Part shown: positions 18,281 through 52,621 of the stretch, in pieces | Layout: the number at the start of each line of letters is the position of its first letter | Numbering within the stretch: the stretch's first letter is position 1 | Source: a virus | Taxonomy: Duplodnaviria > Caudoviricetes | Reading direction: 5' to 3' (one strand) | IMG/VR virus record: IMGVR_UViG_3300027419_000038 | Location: 1 to 56,589 of that record | DNA: 56,589 nt | The notes under the pieces: generated by a model | The model's input: only the letters and a program-made list of their open reading frames with translations | Told to the model about the DNA's origin: nothing | Databases searched by the model: none | Position numbers and translations under genes: made by a program

Positions 18281-19288
18281 TTATTGGCTCTCCTTTATCA
18301 ATCGTAATGCTCTGCCTTTTTGCATTCCAACGTGCTTGACTAAAAAGTTATAACTTCCAACACTGATTCCACATGCACTACAATGGAATAATTTGTCAGT
18401 GTAGAATGCACTGGCGTTGTTGTCATCGTGGAATGGGCAGTTGACTATGTATTTGTCTCCTTTGCGTTCTCCAGGACTGTATACTTTCTCAAATACCTTA
18501 TCCATTACATCCCAATTGGTGATTGCTACTGATGCACCAGTGTTAACTGTTTCTTGGAATTTTGCCAGTCTTTCAGCCACTATCTTATTAGCTTCACTCC
18601 TGATGAGTTTACGATTTAACTCATCCTGTTGCTCATATTGCATTCTTTGAACGATAGTGTTAATATTAGTGGACTTTGCGTAGATATTACTTATTGGTTT
18701 ACATTCCTTCCCACTTTTAGTGTTCTTGGTATAGGGTAACCGTTGCGGGCGCATGGGGTTTCGTAATGTTCCTTCACAAACATATTCTGGATTCCATTTA
18801 TCTATCATCCATTCTGCTGTTGCTATGATGGTTTCCTGGGGAACTCTCATAGGGTTTGCCATGGGCACCCATATATGATACCCTTTAGCTCCTGAGAATT
18901 GGATGTAATTTTTACACTTGAAATAGTCCTCTACATTCCTACTGAACTTTTCAACTTCTACTAATACATCCTCTAATTTCTCTGGCTCATCCGTATCAAA
19001 GTCAAACCAGATTTTGTCTACTATCATATCTTTAGTTCCACGTTTGTGGGTGTCTGGGTGAATGTCCCATCCATAAGAGGATATATATGAGTCGAATCCC
19101 CTTTCATTACACATATCCGCGTGTGTTTTGATATCTTTAAATGAACGAGCTAGTATGTGGCGATTAAACCGTTTACTCCTAGGGTTATAGCGTATAAGTT
19201 CATAAAAAGATTGTGGATATAATAATTGATATAATGCATCCCTAGATAATGTATCCACATAAGGGAATGTTCCAACATATTGTGCCAT
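18281..19288 (-). CDS. Archaeo-eukaryotic primase (AEP) with C-terminal CHC2-type Zn finger
   Basis: WFDFD, FSGAKGYH, RLPYTKNTKSG; CPFHDD..S....FHCSACG. Confidence 0.9.
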   Translation of the reverse strand: MAQYVGTFPYVDTLSRDALYQLLYPQSFYELIRYNPRSKRFNRHILARSFKDIKTHADMCNERGFDSYISSYGWDIHPDTHKRGTKDMIVDKIWFDFDTDEPEKLEDVLVEVEKFSRNVEDYFKCKNYIQFSGAKGYHIWVPMANPMRVPQETIIATAEWMIDKWNPEYVCEGTLRNPMRPQRLPYTKNTKSGKECKPISNIYAKSTNINTIVQRMQYEQQDELNRKLIRSEANKIVAERLAKFQETVNTGASVAITNWDVMDKVFEKVYSPGERKGDKYIVNCPFHDDNNASAFYTDKLFHCSACGISVGSYNFLVKHVGMQKGRALRLIKESQ

Positions 19289-21474: not shown

Positions 21475-22461
21475 TTATTCGGCAGGTTCTCCTGCCATCT
21501 CCTTCAACTGTTCAAATTCTTCCTTAGTGATTCCATCGTGTTTGAGGTAATATTCCCCTGCATCGAGCATTGTCTTGTTATTCACCGAATACTGGGCATC
21601 TTTCACTCCCTGGAGGACATACGAAACGAACCGATGACTTTTAGCCTTTTCGTCCCAATCTGTTGAGACATCACCCGTAACTTTTTCAGGTGTTGGTTGC
21701 TCATCTCCTTCGTCTTCCCCTCCAGATACAGCATCCCCGTCGCTGTCAGGAACTTCGGTTCCAGGTTCTTCTTCAGTTCCAGTTTCACTAGCCCCCCGTT
21801 TCCTACCACGTCTACCACGTCTACCACGTCTACCATTACTGGACTTGGTGGTTGAGGGGGTTCCATCATCATCTTTGAGAGCCATTTCTTCGGCAGAGAC
21901 CTCTCCAGCCCCAATAAGGTCGGAGATTGCACGGTTAACTGCTCTGGTGAAAGCGGTTCCGATGATGTCATGGTCTGCGTGGGCGAAATGCTTCCTTCCA
22001 TTGCAAGGCCCCTTGCAGAGCGTAATCGTTCCATCGTTATTGGTTTTATCGTTCTCATGTCCTTTCTCCCATGATGAACACGCCCCAACTCCTGTAGAGT
22101 ACCTTTTGTTTGGAAGGGTGGCTTTAACCCGGTATTTTGCGAGTATAACTTGGAACAGTTCATTATATTTGATATCCTCATCCATCATTTCAACTGAAAT
22201 GTTGAATGCTGTTGCATATTTCCTCCAGGCACTCTTCTTTTTGAATTTACCTTGGCTTGTTGTTTGGTAATCTGCGTCGTCGAGTAAATCATCCGTTAAT
22301 TGCAGGTAGTCTTTCCAGAATTGGAGTGCCCCATCTACATCAATACCTCCAGACCCCATAAGGGCTGGAGGCACGTCTTCTATGGTTTCTGGGAGGTTTT
22401 CTACTGGGTCTTCGTCTGCTAATGAGTCGTCAAACACTTCTTCTTCTTTTTCACTCATCAT
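21475..22461 (-). CDS. Rad52/Sak-like single-strand annealing protein
   Basis: GVGACS...A.TRAVNRAISDLIGAGEVSAEE motif followed by acidic linker. Confidence 0.7.
   Translation of the reverse strand: MMSEKEEEVFDDSLADEDPVENLPETIEDVPPALMGSGGIDVDGALQFWKDYLQLTDDLLDDADYQTTSQGKFKKKSAWRKYATAFNISVEMMDEDIKYNELFQVILAKYRVKATLPNKRYSTGVGACSSWEKGHENDKTNNDGTITLCKGPCNGRKHFAHADHDIIGTAFTRAVNRAISDLIGAGEVSAEEMALKDDDGTPSTTKSSNGRRGRRGRRGRKRGASETGTEEEPGTEVPDSDGDAVSGGEDEGDEQPTPEKVTGDVSTDWDEKAKSHRFVSYVLQGVKDAQYSVNNKTMLDAGEYYLKHDGITKEEFEQLKEMAGEPAE
21804..21835. repeat. 9-bp tandem repeat CTACCACGT x3 encoding (GRR)n
   Basis: ctaccacgtctaccacgtctaccacgtctacc. Confidence 0.85.
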
Positions 22462-22469
22462 TTACACCC

Positions 22470-22886
22470 TTATTCCAAATCAATCTTATCTAGGACTTCT
22501 TTTGGAATATCTGCGTTACGAATGTAAGTTACTTCGTACACAATTCTTGGGTACTGACTATCCCCTGATGGGGGTAATACTTGTGTTACTTCCACAAACA
22601 CGTAATCGTCAACAAATATGTCACTCATCTTGGATTTAATGCCCTGGTGAGCAGGTAATGATACATATATAACTTCTTCCCCACGTTCTACACGTAGCAC
22701 GTATTTATCTCCAAAATTCTCCTTTCCTTCTTCTGGAGGTTCTATGTCGTCGAGCAATCCTTCAATCTTCTGCCCGACACTATCTGGCTTCCAATAGAAT
22801 TGTCCTTCTTTTCCACCCTGTATACCGTCGCTGATTGCTTTTTTAGCTTCTGCTTGTTTAGTTTTCATGAACTCCTTCAATGACAA
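22470..22886 (-). CDS. OB-fold single-stranded DNA-binding protein-like
   Basis: WKPDSVGQKIEG plus beta-rich core; next to SSAP; AGGAGTTG RBS, TTG start. Confidence 0.6.
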   Translation of the reverse strand: MSLKEFMKTKQAEAKKAISDGIQGGKEGQFYWKPDSVGQKIEGLLDDIEPPEEGKENFGDKYVLRVERGEEVIYVSLPAHQGIKSKMSDIFVDDYVFVEVTQVLPPSGDSQYPRIVYEVTYIRNADIPKEVLDKIDLE

Positions 22887-22904
22887 AATACCAACTCCTT
22901 TTGT

Positions 22905-23022
22905 TAATTATAGGGGGTTATAGCTCCCCCCTGAGCTTCTTCTGCGTTTATCGTGCCAACTAGATTTACACGGGGCAGTGATAGGTGTACACCTACGGAA
23001 GTCTTCTTTGCCCAGGACTCCC
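22905..23022 (-). ncRNA. Putative structured leader/ncRNA (pseudoknot plus alternative hairpins)
   Basis: GGGAGUC/GACUUCC stem whose loop GGGCA pairs with downstream UGCCC; internal UAGGUG/CACCUA hairpin. Confidence 0.4.
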
Positions 23023-23024
23023 TA

Positions 23025-23098
23025 AGCCGGATGAGGGATTTGAACCCCCGACAAGAAGGTTACAAACCTCCCGCTCTGCCTTCCTGAGCTAAACCGGC
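23025..23098 (-). tRNA. tRNA-Thr(UGU)
   Basis: GCCGGTT..TAGCTCAG..GGAGG-TT TGT AA-CCTTC..GGTTCAAATCC..ATCCGGC; no encoded CCA. Confidence 0.9.
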
Positions 23099-23100
23099 AA

Positions 23101-23275
23101 AGCCCCGTGTTGGATTTGAACCAACGTTCATCGGTGTTTGCACAATGTGGGGACGCTTCCAGTCAGTACGTCATGTTCCCCATCTTCTCCAACATTCTCA
23201 CGCTCGGTACGACCAGGAGCACGAATGTTAAAGTGTTCTGCAACCGATTGCCACGCCTGACTTGGCTAACGAGGC
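23101..23275 (-). tRNA. tRNA-Cys(GCA) with 102-nt intron (23136-23237) at 37/38
   Basis: ATCGG-TT GCA G|intron|A-CCGAT; BHB central helix TTGC/GCAA with 3-nt bulges; U73 discriminator typical of Cys. Confidence 0.9.
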
Positions 23276-23377
23276 AATTTAGTAGTTTTTATCCTGGATA
23301 CCAGCCAGTTGTTTTTTGTTCTGCGCTCATACCAAAAAGCACGGAAATTGTGTTTTGAATGGCTATGGGTTAGCCAA

Positions 23378-23449
23378 TAGGAGAATTGGGACTTGAACCC
23401 AAGATACAAGGTCTTCAGCCCTGCGTTTTCCCGACTAAACTATTCTCCT
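23378..23449 (-). tRNA. tRNA-Phe(GAA)
   Basis: AGGAGAA/TTCTCCT acceptor stem; CAGGG-CT GAA GA-CCTTG; GGTTCAAGTCC. Confidence 0.88.
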
Positions 23450-23452
23450 GAA

Positions 23453-23527
23453 CGGGGACGGGGGGATTCGAACCCAACCGACTTCCAGATTAACAGTCTG
23501 GCGTTCTACCTCCTGAACTACATCCCC
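23453..23527 (-). tRNA. tRNA-Asn(GUU)
   Basis: CCAGA-CT GTT AA-TCTGG; G73; T stem has two extra nt. Confidence 0.88.
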
Positions 23528-23529
23528 AA

Positions 23530-23615
23530 GATTGTACGGATGGCTAAGTCCGTACAATTGCTTAGTTCTCTAAATATTAAAGGTTGTTGTAACCCGAAGG
23601 CTTTTTTTACAACAA
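23530..23615 (-). ncRNA. Putative structured inter-tRNA small RNA
   Basis: 9-bp stem enclosing a cUUCGg loop, then 10-bp stem AUUGUACGGA/UCCGUACAAU whose loop CUUAG is complementary to upstream CUAAG. Confidence 0.45.
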
Positions 23616-23617
23616 AG

Positions 23618-23768
23618 TCCCCTCAGTCGGATTTGAACCGACGACAATCCGGTGTCTGCGTAGAGGAAAGGAATTACAGTGGGTGGGCAGACAGGCACGT
23701 TTCGTGCCCGTTCCACTCACCTTTCACTCTCTCTACAGCCGGACGCTCTTCCTCTGAGCTATGAGGGG
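23618..23768 (-). tRNA. tRNA-Tyr(GUA) with 79-nt intron (23654-23732) at 37/38
   Basis: C1-G72 and A73 (archaeal Tyr identity); TCCGG-CT GTA G|intron|A-CCGGA; relaxed BHB CTGT/GCAG. Confidence 0.9.
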
Positions 23769-24243
23769 AATTGAATATTAAAAGAGGACAGGTTTTATGT
23801 TTTTATTTAATCTCCTATCCTCTGTCGTCGGGTGTTTGGTACCAACACCATGTCTTAGGTGGTGATTCTATGACATTGATTAATTATGTGAAGAGGGTAT
23901 ATATATCTATCCCTATGTTTATTGTTAATGCTAGTATGCACATAATAATTAAGCCCAGTCCTGCGATTTCTCCTATTTGCCATAACTTGGTGCCGATGGT
24001 GATTAAATCCATTTAAATCACCCCATCTAAAATCGCAGCTATGGCTACTAAGCCTAATGCTATTATTAAAAAAGTTATCTGTTTGTCTTTTGCTCTATCA
24101 CTCATTTATACCCTCTCCTTTTTTCTTTTGTGGGGGTTGGAGTCGGGTGGGGGAAATATTATATTTAATATTAACTTTGATTCGGATTGAATCTGTTTTT
24201 TGATTGAATCTGTATCCCGACTCCATACCAACCTTGGTTTTTG

Positions 24244-24263
24244 AAGCTTATATACTTTTCGGT
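24244..24263 (-). promoter_or_regulatory. BRE-TATA promoter upstream of tRNA/replication cluster
   Basis: Minus strand accgaaaagTATATAAgc. Confidence 0.65.
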
Positions 24264-24518
24264 TATTGGTGTTTTCTGCGGTAGGCAATGGCTGCAAATG
24301 CCGGAAGAAATTTTGCAGAAAAATTCTGAGCATTCTCCGTATGTTATAAGTCCATCGTTAGGTGGTGAGTCTTTGGTTTGAAAATGATTTTTGAAAAGTG
24401 CAATTCTGAAAAAAAATGGTTGCAGAAAACAATCTCGCCTTAAAACTTGAAAAATATATATAAGTATATGTATATGTTATTTTTTATATATAGTCTATGA
24501 TACTTATGTATTAAACAT

Positions 24519-24536
24519 CCTATATAAAGGTTTTCT
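24519..24536 (-). promoter_or_regulatory. BRE-TATA promoter
   Basis: Minus strand agaAAACCTTTATATAgg, same 13-mer as at 17445-17457. Confidence 0.6.
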
Positions 24537-24599
24537 ATTATTTTCTTCAACACACTTTCAATTCGACAACTGTTTGATTTTCCTTACTTTAAAAAAAAT

Positions 24600-25439
24600 T
24601 TAGAACCCACATCCACAGGGTTCTGGTCGGTCTCCGAGTCCTTTGCAGATTACTTCGGGTGCGTAGATTTTTTCTACTTCGAAGGTTCCGTCTTTTCGGA
24701 AGTGGAGTATTGGGAATCCTGCGGGTTCTGGGTGGAGTCCTAGGTCTTGTGCGTAACTACCAGGGTAATCTAGGAAGTGTCCTGTTAGTATTAGGGATTT
24801 TGTGTGTTCCCTGATTACTCTTTGTCTTCCGTTAACTACATCTACATAGTTGTCATAGATTGGTTTGTGTTCTAATCTATGCACGTGACCCATGGCGAAG
24901 ATGTTAGCTTTTTTGTACTTCTCACTCATTTTACTGGTGCTGTTTATCTTAGTATGTGGTAATTTAGCACCACTTGACCCATGTGTAGTTATCATTTTCC
25001 ACGTGTAATCTCCAACAGTTATTGTATGTTGGAGGAAGCTGTTAGCATAAGGCACATCTAAGAACTCACATAAATTTACGAGTTCGGTCATGCCAGTATC
25101 CTTACCACGTTTATCATGATTTCCATCATGAAGGGCAGTACATCGTTTCCTAATAGGCTTCGCCTGTTGTTTGAAATACCTTTTCTGAAGGTCTGGGGTC
25201 ATGGTTTGCTCGTAGACTCCTATTCCTATACTATTTTTTGTAGCATATTCCAGGTAATCTCCCATCCCACACCATGGTATCCTATATCGTTTGAGATAAT
25301 CGAACATCCATTCGGTGAAATCTTTCAACCATGTTAGACCGGCGATATGAATATCCCCAATCAATGCATAGCGTAAATCCTTCTGAGAGTCAATATAAAC
25401 CTCTTCAGTAATATCCATACCTTTTCCTAAGTCTAACAC
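24600..25439 (-). CDS. Calcineurin-like metallophosphoesterase
   Basis: GDIH, GMGD, GNHD, THG, MGHVH motifs. Confidence 0.92.
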   Translation of the reverse strand: MLDLGKGMDITEEVYIDSQKDLRYALIGDIHIAGLTWLKDFTEWMFDYLKRYRIPWCGMGDYLEYATKNSIGIGVYEQTMTPDLQKRYFKQQAKPIRKRCTALHDGNHDKRGKDTGMTELVNLCEFLDVPYANSFLQHTITVGDYTWKMITTHGSSGAKLPHTKINSTSKMSEKYKKANIFAMGHVHRLEHKPIYDNYVDVVNGRQRVIREHTKSLILTGHFLDYPGSYAQDLGLHPEPAGFPILHFRKDGTFEVEKIYAPEVICKGLGDRPEPCGCGF

Positions 25440-25451
25440 ATCTTAACCTCC

Positions 25452-26366
25452 TTATGGGATGAAATTCCCTTCGTAATGTAAGAAAACATATCCATTGTTA
25501 CATATAAGCTCATCAATGGATTTACCTTTAGCCCATCCAGCTATATCTGCTTTTACACCATTAACTAAGCCTATATAGTGCCCGTACCATACTCCATCAA
25601 GACAACGAACTTGGCAGTGAACTCCTTGACAGGTTAATCCTAACGCCCTGCACGCTGGAAGCAGAACATCGTTAACTAAATCCGCACAATTACCTTTTCG
25701 GCTTGTTACTGTAGTGTATTGGCTCTGTTGCTGGTCATAGTAGTACACATATTTGAAATACTTTGCAATGACATTCCTAATATCTTGTAAAGTGTTTATT
25801 GTACCTAATTTACGTAATTCGGCTAGTACCCACACGTCTCCTTCAACTACACCTGGTTTTACAACCTGGTACGTTGGAATAGAACTCCACGTTTTAGGAC
25901 CAACTATTCCATCAGGAGTATGTCCGGTGACTGATTGGAATGCTTCAACAGCTAATTCAGTTATCCCACCAAACACTCCGTCTACTGTAGCTGTGTAAAA
26001 TCCGAAATCTTGTAGTTTTTGCTGTAAGAATACAACGCACTGGTTTTGGTTTCCAATGCTTAGAACAACTTTAGAACACCCTTCGAAATCCCTAGGCTCT
26101 GTATTAACTGGAACTTCAACTGGGGGTTGCTCAGCTTCAGTAGAAGGTGGATTCACATACACTGCTGGACCTTTAGCATAGTTAATAATCCTCTGAACCA
26201 TATCTGCAAATTTACTCCCAGAGACATAATCTCCAGTCAAATCTTCTTTTAAGTTTACACTATCAGGTAATCTGTTATTCAACTTCACATAAGCCGAATA
26301 TCGCTTATACATTTTCCTGAATGTTTCATTTGGGATTAATGTTGTTGTATCTGATATATTTCCCAT
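25452..26366 (-). CDS. pei: Endolysin: pseudomurein endoisopeptidase (PMBR + PG_binding_1-like domain + peptidase C71-like domain)
   Basis: ETFRKMYKRYSAYVKLNNRLPDSV (PMBR); LQQKL..FGF..VDGVFG..T..AV..FQ...DGIVGPKTW; YVYYYD..GNCAD..VRC..GHY. Confidence 0.85.
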   Translation of the reverse strand: MGNISDTTTLIPNETFRKMYKRYSAYVKLNNRLPDSVNLKEDLTGDYVSGSKFADMVQRIINYAKGPAVYVNPPSTEAEQPPVEVPVNTEPRDFEGCSKVVLSIGNQNQCVVFLQQKLQDFGFYTATVDGVFGGITELAVEAFQSVTGHTPDGIVGPKTWSSIPTYQVVKPGVVEGDVWVLAELRKLGTINTLQDIRNVIAKYFKYVYYYDQQQSQYTTVTSRKGNCADLVNDVLLPACRALGLTCQGVHCQVRCLDGVWYGHYIGLVNGVKADIAGWAKGKSIDELICNNGYVFLHYEGNFIP

Positions 26367-39989: not shown

Positions 39990-41000
39990 TTAAATTGCAG
40001 TAATCTTACTCACTATGATGAAATCAGCCTTTTTGTTACTAGAGTTATTCATCCCAGTGAATGTAAATTCAAAGGATTTAGCTCCATCCCCACCCTCGGT
40101 AGGTTTAACATCAGTGATTTCAGCATTATACACATCCGCTTGGAATGAGTATTTAGTACCAGTACCCGCATCAGCAGCACCAGTATATTTCCACTGCAAT
40201 GCCTGAGAACGGTTAGCAGAACTAACAGCAGCCCCAGATACAGAACCTGTAGCCCAAAGACGCTGTTCATCCTGAGTGTATTTCAAAGTGAAAGAACCTT
40301 CACATGTCAGGTCTCCCATATCCTTATTCACACTACCAAACGGATTTCCAGCATCGACAGTCGCTTCAATATTGTTAGACAGTTTAAGCGACCCTTCAAC
40401 ATAGTTACTCAAAGCAGAACCTAAAGCTCCGCCAACATCACCCATTTTGAACGTCAATTCACCAGTTTTAGCTGGTTGGGTTGTAGTATAAGTCAAAGTA
40501 GGTTCAGTTATGTCAAAGCTAGGGAAATCAGAAACATATCCAATAGTTAAGTTTGGAGATTCCTCTGTAGGGAATGCGAACTCTAAATTATTCGCAACAG
40601 CCCCTTCAAACCGTTTAGCTTCCTCAGAACCCACATTATATCCGTGAGTGATGGAATAGAATGGTAACGTGTCCGCCCAGGAGAATGTATGAGTGTATGC
40701 TGTAGTAGCACCAACTTGGACTGAAGAAACACCTCCGCAGAAAGCGAATATAATATCCTCAATACCCCCATCCCACCTAAGCCTATCCTTAAACTCAGGT
40801 TCGGCGAAAGCTTTAGTACGACTATTAACAGTCCCTTTACCCCTAGCACCAATATGCCCCTCGTCAGATTCAACTTCAATCTGAGCATTACCAGTAAACT
40901 CCTGATACTTAATCATAGCAGTAGGAGCCACACCAGTTGCCTCAGTGCTCTGTTTACCGACACCAGCATAATGGAAACTATTACTTGGATACTGAGCCAT
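39990..41000 (-). CDS. Major tail (tube) protein
   Basis: GVGKQST..T.V.P; YTHTF; FEGAVANNLEF; L.NNIE; synteny. Confidence 0.85.
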   Translation of the reverse strand: MAQYPSNSFHYAGVGKQSTEATGVAPTAMIKYQEFTGNAQIEVESDEGHIGARGKGTVNSRTKAFAEPEFKDRLRWDGGIEDIIFAFCGGVSSVQVGATTAYTHTFSWADTLPFYSITHGYNVGSEEAKRFEGAVANNLEFAFPTEESPNLTIGYVSDFPSFDITEPTLTYTTTQPAKTGELTFKMGDVGGALGSALSNYVEGSLKLSNNIEATVDAGNPFGSVNKDMGDLTCEGSFTLKYTQDEQRLWATGSVSGAAVSSANRSQALQWKYTGAADAGTGTKYSFQADVYNAEITDVKPTEGGDGAKSFEFTFTGMNNSSNKKADFIIVSKITAI

Positions 41001-49236: not shown

Positions 49237-50706
49237 TTAACTCACTGTTCCTTTAACACCCTTCCAACCCCTCTTCCTTAATGCTAGAATTATAGGGTCA
49301 TCCTCAGTGTTTTGTAATCTTTGTGTCTTCTGTGATTCTTCGTTGCCAGGTTGGGCTGGTTTCCCACGTGTTTCATTAGGGTCGGCATTCATATTGACTT
49401 TAGCTTGTATTTGCATGGCAGGTTCTAGTATATTCGGTGTTTTGTTTGGGTTAGCGTCAACTAATTCTTGGTATCTGCTGAAATATCCTTTTAATATAAA
49501 GTCTTTATCCAAACCCGGCACTATTGACACTAATGTGTTGGCAATGTTTGCTGATTCGGCTTCATCATCTTTATCAAGGTCGGGGTACTCCCCGAAGATA
49601 TGTCCAATAGCATTCTCCATCCTACCAATGGTTAGAGCTTCGTTTATAATATCAGGCTCTAACCATGACTTAATGAATGCACGGAGATACTCCATATACA
49701 CTAAGAATCCGGCAGAACCACTCATCTGTTCTTTGGTAGTGAAACGACCACCCTTGCTGGATTCAAATTTAGAATCTGGAGTCATTAAAACTGAACGAAT
49801 CTCTGTCTTGAAATATTTAAGGTATAATGTGTAATCTAATAACGAATTTGCACCCATACGTGTGGGTTTAATCCCAGCAGGATATCCCACAACTTCCTTC
49901 TCATCAGATTCACTGAACCAAGAGATTATTTTCTCAATATCACTATCAGAAACTTCACTTATATCATAATCATCAGCACCAATCTCTAAACCCATTATAG
50001 CTCCACTTTTGTGGGCTGATTTTATAAGGTACTTTTCAGTACGCTTCTTCATATCAATAAGGTCTAGTGCAGCATATATTGCACTCCTACCATCACCATC
50101 TTTCTCCATATACTTTAAATGGATTATTTCTTCAGGTGCGAAGTGATATGTAACCTCTTCCTCTTCCATTTGGATATCATCGAAATCAGCGTTCTGCCAA
50201 CCATCAGATGGCACTAATACGGTGGCTTTTTGAATGTATTCTAATACTTCATCCGTTTTAGGGTCTCGTATGATTAAGAAATCGAACTCATCCCCATCAT
50301 AAGCGAGGAAGTCCAGGCATAATTTACCGTTACGGATTGATTTCTGGATGAAACAAGCCCCATCCACTAAACACTTCTCAATAGCTTCATCAATGAACTC
50401 ATTAAGCTTCCATTGCTTAGAACATTCCTCAATGTACTCTTTAGCTTTCTGAAACTGCTTAGGGTCGTCAGTGGCAATGCGTAAGTCATGATTAGCAGTA
50501 ATCACTGCATTGTTAATCGATGAGTTAACAGTTGAATCATTCTCATACGCCCACCTAGCATTTTTAATAGTCCTTGGAATACGCTCGTATCCCATATCCT
50601 CAAAATTAGGGAGTTCGGTGTCAGAATCCTCTTCGTTGGCTGCACCTCTAGCGATACCATCTTGATTCGTGTTAAGCAACCGTCCCATCATCTTCAATAA
50701 TCCCAT
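49237..50706 (-). CDS. Portal protein
   Basis: 489 aa after terminase; LVDGACF, FAPEEIIHL..GRS motifs. Confidence 0.88.
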   Translation of the reverse strand: MGLLKMMGRLLNTNQDGIARGAANEEDSDTELPNFEDMGYERIPRTIKNARWAYENDSTVNSSINNAVITANHDLRIATDDPKQFQKAKEYIEECSKQWKLNEFIDEAIEKCLVDGACFIQKSIRNGKLCLDFLAYDGDEFDFLIIRDPKTDEVLEYIQKATVLVPSDGWQNADFDDIQMEEEEVTYHFAPEEIIHLKYMEKDGDGRSAIYAALDLIDMKKRTEKYLIKSAHKSGAIMGLEIGADDYDISEVSDSDIEKIISWFSESDEKEVVGYPAGIKPTRMGANSLLDYTLYLKYFKTEIRSVLMTPDSKFESSKGGRFTTKEQMSGSAGFLVYMEYLRAFIKSWLEPDIINEALTIGRMENAIGHIFGEYPDLDKDDEAESANIANTLVSIVPGLDKDFILKGYFSRYQELVDANPNKTPNILEPAMQIQAKVNMNADPNETRGKPAQPGNEESQKTQRLQNTEDDPIILALRKRGWKGVKGTVS

Positions 50707-50718
50707 TGTATCTCCCCT

Positions 50719-52074
50719 TTACACAGCACTGAGGAATCTTCTACTACGCTTTTTAGTAGCCCCAAATAAGTAATTAAACGCTCCTGAGAAACAATCCACT
50801 TGGTCGTCGTGCCCACCTTCGTCAGGAGGGAATGCCACGATTTCCTCAAAGAAATCCTCATTCCACGGAGCATCCATAATATAAACAAATCCCTGTTCAC
50901 TGTAAGCCGAAATCCGCTTAGCACGGTCTTCTTTACTTCCACTGTTCCGTATTGATTCGAATCGGAATCCAGGGAGAAGTCTACTATAATAATTAGCTAC
51001 AATCTTACCAGATGAACCTGGCTCTTCTTCCATACAAACCGTGACACCATATCCATCGTGCTGGGCTGTTTTAAGAATCAGAGCTTCCACCTCATTTGGT
51101 GTTCCACGCATCCGTTTAACATCCCGAACATAACAGAAATTAGCTTCATCCACTTCCATTAGCAGACCAACAGTCCAATCCGGGTCACGCCCAGCTTTAC
51201 TTGGCTTTGTTGCAGCTAAATCCCAGTATCTGCACCGTTTAACTATTTTCCTCGGCACATTACGATAGAATTTGTTTTCGAACCATTTTAGTTTGAATAA
51301 TCCCCCTTCAATTCCAACATCCCAGTCACCATACTTTAATTGTTGCCGGGTTACATAATCGAGCTTGTCTAGTTTTGATTCGTAGTCTGCTCGGTCTATG
51401 TGTGGATTGTCGAGGTAAGAAGCTGGAATAAATGGCTTCTCATTATAATCGTTAACTGCTATAAATCTTCTTTTAACCCATTGGTGTCCTACACCCCCTG
51501 GGTTTGTCCCAGCTCTCATTCTACTGGGTATTTCACTACCTTCAAGTCGCCTAAGACGACTGAACAAATATCTGTATTGTGTTTCTGTAAATTGTGTTAA
51601 TTCATCAAAAGCAACATAATCAAACTCAGTACCTTGATAACGGTATTTATCATTCTCTGTTTCAAGATACCCGAATGTTACGGTCGCTCCAGACGGAAAT
51701 GTCCATGTTTTCTTACGGTCATCCCATTTCGCATCTGTATTATATAACCATGACGCAGCCCTGTCCATCAAGGCACCGGGTAACGCTAAATCTGCATAAG
51801 TACGACGTAAAATCAGTGCACTATACTCTGCATGACTCACATGACGTAATGCATCCATAAGTATAGCATCAGACTTACCCCCTCCCGCCTGACCTCCGTA
51901 GAGGACTTCTTCTTGTGGGGTAAGTAAAAAATGAACTTGTTTCATGAAGGGGCGGTGGGGAATGTACTCATTCTCCAATATCTCCGTCATCAGGGTTTTC
52001 TTCTCCTGCATCGTCAGGGGTTTGGTCCGTAGCATCCTGTGCCACTTCTTCCCCGACTGGTTCGGCATCGCCAT
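50719..52074 (-). CDS. terL: Terminase large subunit
   Basis: YGGQAGGGKS, FDELTQF, TNPGG.GH.WVK, WDLA, HDDQVD. Confidence 0.95.
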   Translation of the reverse strand: MAMPNQSGKKWHRMLRTKPLTMQEKKTLMTEILENEYIPHRPFMKQVHFLLTPQEEVLYGGQAGGGKSDAILMDALRHVSHAEYSALILRRTYADLALPGALMDRAASWLYNTDAKWDDRKKTWTFPSGATVTFGYLETENDKYRYQGTEFDYVAFDELTQFTETQYRYLFSRLRRLEGSEIPSRMRAGTNPGGVGHQWVKRRFIAVNDYNEKPFIPASYLDNPHIDRADYESKLDKLDYVTRQQLKYGDWDVGIEGGLFKLKWFENKFYRNVPRKIVKRCRYWDLAATKPSKAGRDPDWTVGLLMEVDEANFCYVRDVKRMRGTPNEVEALILKTAQHDGYGVTVCMEEEPGSSGKIVANYYSRLLPGFRFESIRNSGSKEDRAKRISAYSEQGFVYIMDAPWNEDFFEEIVAFPPDEGGHDDQVDCFSGAFNYLFGATKKRSRRFLSAV

Positions 52075-52621
52075 CTTTCTCACCCTCTAAATCTTCAAAG
52101 TAATTCACGTACTCCTCTGCACGTTTCTTAACTTCGGCTTTAATCTCTTCAGGAGTTTTACCTTCACTACGGCTAGTTGCTTCACCCATCAGGAGTAACC
52201 CTAGTTTCAATATTCTATCAATGTCAACTGTGTTGTTTATTTGGATTATATCTTCTGGATTTAACTCAGTACGGTCAAGGTACTGGTTTATGATTCCATC
52301 AATAATATCCAGGTATCGTGCACGGGTTTCAACCATATCCCGCTCAGTACGAAGCTCAACACGCCTTCGTACTTTCTTCTTACGCTCAGCACAACGTTCA
52401 TCCCATTTAAGGACTTTACGCCAATTGAATATTGTGGCGTAGGCAATATCGAGTTCTTTTTCTATTTTAATAACTCGTTGTCGTACTGGTAATGAATCAC
52501 CTAATGAAAAGTATAATTCGTAAGCTTCATGTTGTCTATCTGTCTCGTTTTCTAAACAAATCTTTGGTCTTCCTCTTTGCTCTGTTTTGGGTCGTCCTCT
52601 TCCTCGTTTTTTCTTAGCCAT
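51968..52621 (-). CDS. terS: Terminase small subunit
   Basis: N-terminal RGRP repeats and HTH (IAYATIFNWRK..W..R); immediately upstream of terL. Confidence 0.7.
   Translation of the reverse strand: MAKKKRGRGRPKTEQRGRPKICLENETDRQHEAYELYFSLGDSLPVRQRVIKIEKELDIAYATIFNWRKVLKWDERCAERKKKVRRRVELRTERDMVETRARYLDIIDGIINQYLDRTELNPEDIIQINNTVDIDRILKLGLLLMGEATSRSEGKTPEEIKAEVKKRAEEYVNYFEDLEGEKDGDAEPVGEEVAQDATDQTPDDAGEENPDDGDIGE

Follow-up and report, generated by a model that had tools for sequence, protein, structure and literature searches.

[quoted passage not shown] The intron is probably a long canonical tRNA intron spliced by the enzymes of the host, with hairpins that serve as a scaffold and not as a cargo, and it appears to be dispensable for the virus lineage. 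The dispensability is argued from close relatives of the virus which appear to carry an intron-less tRNA-Cys.

The window, i.e. the whole stretch of DNA that was analyzed, comprises a complete IMG/VR virus record; its 56,589 bp carry direct terminal repeats, score 100 for CheckV completeness and have a G+C content of approximately 40%. All genes with family matches are located on the minus strand, and the following were identified:

50719-52083: large terminase
49237-50706: portal
39990-41000: tail tube protein
18281-19288, minus strand: primase-polymerase
25452-26366, minus strand: protein with PG_binding_1 and Peptidase_C71 pseudomurein endoisopeptidase (Pei) domains, adjoining the tRNA cluster

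According to the terminase, the nearest isolates are the Methanothermobacter phages psiM100 and psiM2 (51% identity) and PhiF3 (43%), and the protein database contains one close homologue of the terminase that is labelled as Methanobacteriaceae archaeon. Because of these two relationships and the presence of the Pei domain, the host is most likely a pseudomurein-walled methanogen of the order Methanobacteriales. No family match to RtcB, the tRNA-intron endonuclease (EndA), L7Ae or Rnl-type RNA ligase was found in the virus genome by searches which, in control genomes, matched RtcB, EndA, L7Ae and Rnl-type ligases in 10, 4, 7 and 8 of 14 genomes, respectively; judged by its gene content, the virus is wholly dependent on the splicing enzymes of its host.

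Two of the listed proteins have features of their own. The putative primase-polymerase combines LigD_Prim-Pol and DNA_primase_S matches, both weak, with a C-terminal DnaG-type CHC2 zinc ribbon fused to them. For the lysis enzyme (25452-26366), only the PG-binding part was matched in the best 15 of 160 phage records retrieved by tblastn, and neither the psiM2 nor the psiM100 Pei was among these 15. Homologues of 46-63% identity are present in metagenomes, and the protein looks like a member of a divergent Pei lineage.

The tRNA-Cys gene belongs to a cluster of five tRNA genes on the minus strand (23025-23768), two of them interrupted, which were called by ARAGORN with introns allowed:

23025-23098, minus strand: tRNA-Thr(UGU), 2 nt downstream of tRNA-Cys (ARAGORN, Rfam)
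23101-23275, minus strand: tRNA-Cys(GCA) including the intron, a 175-nt pre-tRNA body with CCA not encoded (ARAGORN with introns; cloverleaf in both the MFE and centroid folds)
within 23025-23768, minus strand: tRNA-Phe(GAA) (ARAGORN with introns allowed)
23452-23528, minus strand: tRNA-Asn(GUU) (ARAGORN)
23617-23768, minus strand: tRNA-Tyr(GUA) with a 79-nt intron at 23654-23732 (ARAGORN, Rfam)

The genes of each of the pairs Asn-Phe and Cys-Thr are spaced by 2 nt, and tRNA-Thr and tRNA-Cys are probably co-transcribed. Default ARAGORN recovers three of the five genes and Rfam four, tRNA-Cys being missed by both. When introns were allowed, ARAGORN made no tRNA call in 20 dinucleotide-shuffled windows and none in psiM100 and PhiF3.

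The tRNA-Cys gene is divided as follows:

23238-23275, minus strand: 5' exon of 38 nt, comprising acceptor, D arm, 5' strand of the anticodon stem and the loop UUGCAG
23136-23237, minus strand: intron of 102 nt at position 37/38 (ARAGORN with introns)
23101-23135, minus strand: 3' exon of 35 nt, comprising A38, 3' strand of the anticodon stem, a 4-nt variable loop, T arm, acceptor and U73

These intron ends are identical to those of the original prediction, which had been made from the letters of the window. After removal of the intron, ARAGORN folds the remaining 73 nt into a standard cloverleaf in which the acceptor stem has 7 bp, the T loop reads UUCAAAU and the anticodon loop has 7 nt; G37 and U73 are present. 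In PMC4090602, archaeal tRNA introns are given as 11-129 nt long with medians of 12-25 nt, the exception being the tRNA-Trp introns of 65 nt, within which a box C/D RNA is nested; this agrees with the statement in the original prediction that most archaeal tRNA introns are much shorter than the present one and that the long tRNA-Trp intron encodes a box C/D guide. With its 102 nt, the Cys intron lies far above the median of 12-25 nt and inside the overall range.

Two other identities of the intron have been considered and rejected. Copies that would mark it as a repeat or mobile element were sought elsewhere, and none were found: in the window the best sense match extends over 13 nt (E = 0.064) and the best antisense match over 11 nt (E = 1), blastn of the region 22000-25000 against 50,697 phage records matched the tRNA exons only (16 records), blastn of the tRNA-Cys precursor against 72,556 plasmids gave no match, and no further copy was found in IMG/VR. 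There is also no sequence likeness between the Cys intron and the intron of tRNA-Tyr. As for coding capacity, inspection by eye revealed only an ORF of 10 codons on the RNA strand and one of 28 codons on the opposite strand, both of which were judged to be due to chance.

The splice motif, drawn from the sequence, consists of two halves (the slash marks the cut):

23237-23243, minus strand: 5' half of the BHB, with UUGC at 23240-23243 and the bulge AG/A at 23237-23239, cut after 23238
23135-23141, minus strand: 3' half of the BHB, with GCAA at 23138-23141 and the bulge AC/A at 23135-23137, cut after 23136

In pre-tRNA numbering, UUGC 33-36 pairs with GCAA 135-138 by Watson-Crick pairs only, the two bulges of 3 nt each occupy positions 37-39 and 139-141, and the outer helix is formed by ACA 40-42 with UGU 132-134. 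The junction called by ARAGORN corresponds to cuts that follow the second base of each bulge and leaves the correct 7-nt anticodon loop. In the thermodynamic model, the four central pairs have probabilities of 0.21, 0.97, 0.99 and 0.99, and the three outer pairs, which form a weak 3-bp helix, of 0.01-0.02. The strict BHB fold (-56.7) is less stable by 3.8 kcal/mol than the MFE fold (-60.5), which favours a slipped variant; the 3-nt bulge on the 3' side is present in the MFE. According to this model the BHB is a well-formed pairing scheme, with a 5' bulge that needs the enzyme or a sub-optimal fold.

Since the BHB can be drawn at the canonical position 37/38, excision by the host endonuclease, as originally proposed, is the expected fate of the intron, though the strict motif is not the most stable fold. 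The euryarchaeal alpha4 and alpha2 endonucleases are described in PMC4033280 as acting on canonical BHB motifs only, a preference that fits an intron at 37/38. The favoured course of events would begin with transcription of tRNA-Cys, probably together with tRNA-Thr, after which pairing of the anticodon loop with the intron's 3' end could create the BHB. The host splicing endonuclease would then cut both 3-nt bulges and the host RtcB would join the exons, as expected from what is known of these enzyme families; on the same grounds, host enzymes would be responsible for trimming the ends of tRNA-Cys and adding CCA. The released intron would probably be circularized and then degraded.

Relatives of the virus provide an independent view of the intron. 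According to the run index, the analyzed stretch occurs nearly whole in one groundwater sequencing run, possibly the one from which it derives, and in parts in eight others, four of which belong to one wastewater study and are labelled RNA-Seq. None of the listed runs is recorded as RNA, which carries no information on expression. Contigs of runs X2, X3, X4 and X6 were placed on the window at a likeness of at least 80%, where they match the flanking ORFs, the other tRNAs and the spacers at 87-98% identity; these runs therefore contain relatives of the virus. In X4, a contig of 99 nt covers 23237-23308 with 6 differences in 72 positions, including 33 nt of the virus-specific 5' leader, and then resumes at 23134, so that it skips 102 bases that correspond exactly to the intron with a 1-base ambiguity (short side of 27 letters); its differences show that it stems from a relative. 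In X3, a contig of 585 nt extends from the 22470-22886 ORF across tRNA-Thr as far as 23127, continues with 27 letters which replace 26 exon letters together with the intron, and resumes at 23256 (short side of 22 letters). When these 27 letters are read by eye on the tRNA strand, the loop UUGCAGA can be recognized, flanked by two arms of partial complementarity, and the contig appears to represent an uninterrupted tRNA-Cys with a different anticodon stem. Both joints come from two samples of the one wastewater study, have short sides under the 30-31 letters that the tool gives as a guide, and were obtained with the likeness set below 95. No contig of X2, X3, X4 or X6 at 80% or above covers the intron body or the region 23818-24423, which was counted as no evidence.

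The meaning of the X4 joint depends on the type of library, which the tool reports for X3 and X4 as 'RNA? (probably DNA)'. The tRNA-Tyr intron is retained in X3 (a 385-nt contig placed on 23613-23768 that differs at 22 positions and has 7 gaps, no fewer than four indels being inside the intron), and this, together with the contigs that span intergenic spacers, favours DNA. If the libraries are DNA, the Cys intron appears to be a presence/absence polymorphism among viruses of about 90% identity; if they are RNA, the X4 joint could be a spliced product and not an intron-less gene. In either case the predicted ends of the intron are confirmed by independent sequence. A lack of conservation had been named beforehand as the observation that would speak against a guide or cargo role, and it is what the contigs of the relatives, joining across the intron with short sides, appear to display. 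No close relatives were found in the viral, metagenome or genome contig collections: one candidate locus was an unrelated phage contig of higher GC which has only the T arm and acceptor end in common with tRNA-Cys, and five further viral loci encode TerL proteins of only 33-44% identity and no tRNAs.

The same observations bear on the idea that the gene is decaying, i.e. that a recent insertion is spliced poorly or never and the tRNA-Cys copy is a pseudogene in this lineage. It would account for the failure of the Rfam tRNA model to detect the gene, for the energetic cost of the strict BHB with its weak outer helix, and for the apparently uninterrupted gene in relatives. We nevertheless consider decay very unlikely: the exon features of a working tRNA-Cys are all intact, the register of the BHB yields a perfect 7-nt loop, and the X4 joint falls exactly at the BHB-defined ends, which is expected if the intron has been gained or lost through the chemistry of splicing or is being spliced.

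Two hairpins make up the body of the intron:

23187-23233, minus strand: hairpin 1, with an 11-bp lower stem, a 1-nt/3-nt internal loop, upper stems of 5 bp and 3 bp, and a CGU loop
23148-23182, minus strand: hairpin 2, with the 6-bp stem UGGGGA/UCCCCA and a 23-nt loop that contains AUGACG and CUGA

Hairpin 1 is identical in the MFE and centroid folds, both for the intron alone and within the pre-tRNA. The 6-bp stem of hairpin 2 is present in all MFE and centroid folds, with uncertain inner pairs that vary between folds. The two hairpins that had been described from the letters are thus recovered, and the description of the intron as clearly a structured cargo proved overstated: the intron alone has a z of -1.24 and is matched in stability by 26 of 200 shuffles, and the whole tRNA-Cys precursor reaches a modest z of -2.38 (5 of 200 shuffles at least as stable). 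In our preferred reading, a host-spliced intron with scaffold hairpins, they would hold the intron ends at a three-way junction and so allow the BHB to form. The tRNA-Tyr precursor is very stable (z = -5.41; none of 200 shuffles was as good), and in the MFE its 5' splice site lies in a 2x2 internal loop, not in a clean 3-nt bulge (by eye).

The original prediction had likened the intron to an H/ACA or K-loop guide RNA, on the strength of AGAAGA as a hinge and of AUGACG, CUGA and a following ACA. Box C/D RNAs have RUGAUGA (box C) towards their 5' end, CUGA (box D) towards their 3' end, a K-turn or K-loop for L7Ae, and, upstream of box D, a guide of 10-12 nt that pairs with the target. Archaeal H/ACA RNAs comprise a lower stem, a two-sided pseudouridylation pocket and an upper stem with a K-turn or K-loop, and an unpaired ACA directly follows the lower stem on its 3' side, some 14-15 nt away from the pocket. 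The intron has been compared with both arrangements by simple pattern tests on these consensus sequences. All four motifs are indeed present, each being expected by chance: CUGA occurred in 62%, ACA in 98% and ANANNA in 85% of 5000 dinucleotide-shuffled versions of the Cys intron. Nothing within one mismatch of RUGAUGA or UGAUGA was found in either the Cys or the Tyr intron. The only CUGA of the Cys intron is internal, at position 72 of 102, and not at the 3' end; nothing resembling box C stands at the intron 5' end, and the canonical C/D arrangement is absent. The pattern for an L7Ae-binding K-turn or K-loop (a 3-bp C stem, a 3-nt bulge and tandem GA/GA, in both orientations) had no candidates in the two introns, as compared with at least one in 1308 of 2000 shuffles.

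The hairpins do not resemble an H/ACA unit either. Hairpin 1 has its 1-nt/3-nt internal loop only and no pseudouridylation pocket, and hairpin 2 lacks both a two-sided pocket and a stable upper stem, offering its single 23-nt loop or, in an alternative fold, a one-sided bulge of 5 nt (by eye). The ACA at intron positions 90-92 abuts or overlaps the stem of hairpin 2, its first A closing a U-A pair. Predicted duplexes of the intron with nine viral targets (its own exons, the other tRNAs and two spacers) gave z values from -1.23 to +0.69 against 300 shuffles, so there is no excess of complementarity to these targets, and the Rfam search for a guide RNA that had been proposed as a check returned only two microRNA-hairpin noise matches (E = 3.6 and 6.2).

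That the Cys intron is a box C/D or H/ACA guide directing 2'-O-methylation or pseudouridylation of host or viral RNA is hence highly improbable, and on architecture this reading is close to refuted. What it has on its side is the precedent of the euryarchaeal tRNA-Trp intron, a box C/D guide according to PMC4090602, and the co-occurrence of AUGA, CUGA within 12 nt and then ACA, a set chosen post hoc and found in 5% of 5000 shuffles. Against these stand the missing box C and internal CUGA, the lack of K-turn and K-loop candidates, of two-sided pockets and of Rfam matches, the ordinary complementarity to the intron's own exons, unlike in tRNA-Trp, and the relatives that appear intron-less. The Cys intron adds no new class of guide RNA.

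The excised intron could act as a viral small RNA other than a guide, i.e. a stable regulator, sponge or protein decoy that is probably circular. Its length well above the archaeal median, the robust hairpin 1 and the second long, very stable intron in tRNA-Tyr all suggest such a role, and metazoan tRNA introns are described as giving rise to stable circular RNAs (PMC4536317) and free yeast tRNA introns as regulating mRNAs via base pairing (PMC13079951). We regard it as unlikely, however, as the intron is apparently absent in close relatives, folds alone no better than its shuffles, finds no antisense match in the viral genome longer than the 11 nt mentioned above, and forms duplexes with viral tRNAs and spacers which are no better than those of shuffles. 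There is only a slight chance that both introns are recently acquired, virus-borne accessory RNAs, which would be released by the host EndA and RtcB as circles and act during infection; if so, the forms with and without the intron would capture, as it happens, the gain of a tRNA intron carried by a virus.

A use of the intron might also reside in the gene or its precursor. That a compact virus keeps 181 nt of intron (Cys and Tyr together) may hint at a use of some kind, which counts against the preferred reading. The interruption could gate or time the maturation of tRNA-Cys through the host EndA and RtcB, or shield the gene against recombination with the host tRNA gene or against use as an attachment site by integrating elements, as in the idea of Randau and Soll. 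The shielding idea has been published for cellular tRNA genes (PMC4090602 and PMC4033280), and the two interruptions among five viral tRNA genes and the full dependence on host splicing enzymes are in line with a role at this level. Relatives appear to manage without the Cys intron, which leaves such a role a small probability in our estimate.

Our preferred interpretation, a canonical intron with a scaffold body, can be set beside several known systems. Euryarchaeal tRNA introns are found mostly in tRNA-Trp and tRNA-Met. The Cys intron shares with canonical archaeal tRNA introns the 37/38 position, the 4-bp helix with two 3-nt bulges and the symmetric cuts, and differs in its location in a viral genome, in its length of 102 nt against medians of 12-25 nt, and in residing in tRNA-Cys. 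It is similar to the euryarchaeal tRNA-Trp intron (Haloferax volcanii and others) in being long, in its 37/38 position and in the releasing enzymes expected, and differs from it in that box C, a terminal C/D pair and a K-turn are missing and complementarity to its own exons near positions 34 and 39 is not seen. Intron gain by transposition in Thermoproteales offers another parallel, an intron that one lineage possesses and its near relatives apparently lack; by contrast, no second copy of the Cys intron has been found in tRNA-Tyr, the genome, phage records, plasmids or IMG/VR, and transposition is therefore not demonstrated. The metazoan tricRNAs (PMC4536317) likewise derive from a BHB-bounded intron released by a splicing endonuclease and RtcB; the long structured body of the Cys intron could, by analogy, give a stable circle.

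Archaeal viruses rarely carry tRNA genes, and the only interrupted one that was found in the literature on them is that of HGTV-1, a haloarchaeal tailed virus, mentioned in one line of PMC13532342 as having tRNA genes, one with an intron. HGTV-1 infects another host order and, as given in PMC8651126, carries 34 tRNA genes together with RtcB and Rnl2 ligases of its own, in contrast to the five tRNA genes, two of them interrupted, and the lack of RtcB, EndA and Rnl-type ligase matches in the present virus. In the literature covered, which does not include the main methanogen-virus compendium, no description of a BHB intron in a methanogen-virus tRNA gene was found. If our interpretation is correct, tRNA genes whose processing depends on the splicing endonuclease and ligase of the host can be carried by a virus that infects a pseudomurein-walled methanogen, and virus-borne BHB introns can be long. 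Snapshots of tRNA intron gain and loss have been called for (PMC4033280); if the contigs are confirmed as DNA, the two forms of tRNA-Cys would be a natural allele pair with which the gain or loss of an archaeal tRNA intron, and its cost or benefit to a virus, could be followed.

Other parts of the tRNA cluster deserve a brief description. The five viral tRNAs read the codons UGY, UAY, UUY, AAY and ACA. In the 55 minus-strand ORFs of the window (14,535 codons), Cys codons are rare (190) and those for Tyr (674), Asn (749) and Phe (571) are common; codon supply is therefore a weak reason to carry tRNA-Cys in particular. The tRNA-Asn(GUU) gene is absent from relatives in runs X2 and X3, the contigs of which pass from 23449 straight to 23530, the sides of the joints being 63 and 65 letters long, so the set of tRNAs differs among close relatives. 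The spacer between tRNA-Tyr and tRNA-Asn (23529-23616, minus strand) gave no match in the Rfam search. It contains two strong hairpins, one of them a perfect 10-bp stem, which flank the A/T-rich stretch TTTAATATTT (z = -4.21; 0 of 200 shuffles as good), and it may represent a promoter with processing signals or a small RNA. This spacer is the best-conserved piece in the relatives, with 2-3 differences per 65-167 nt.
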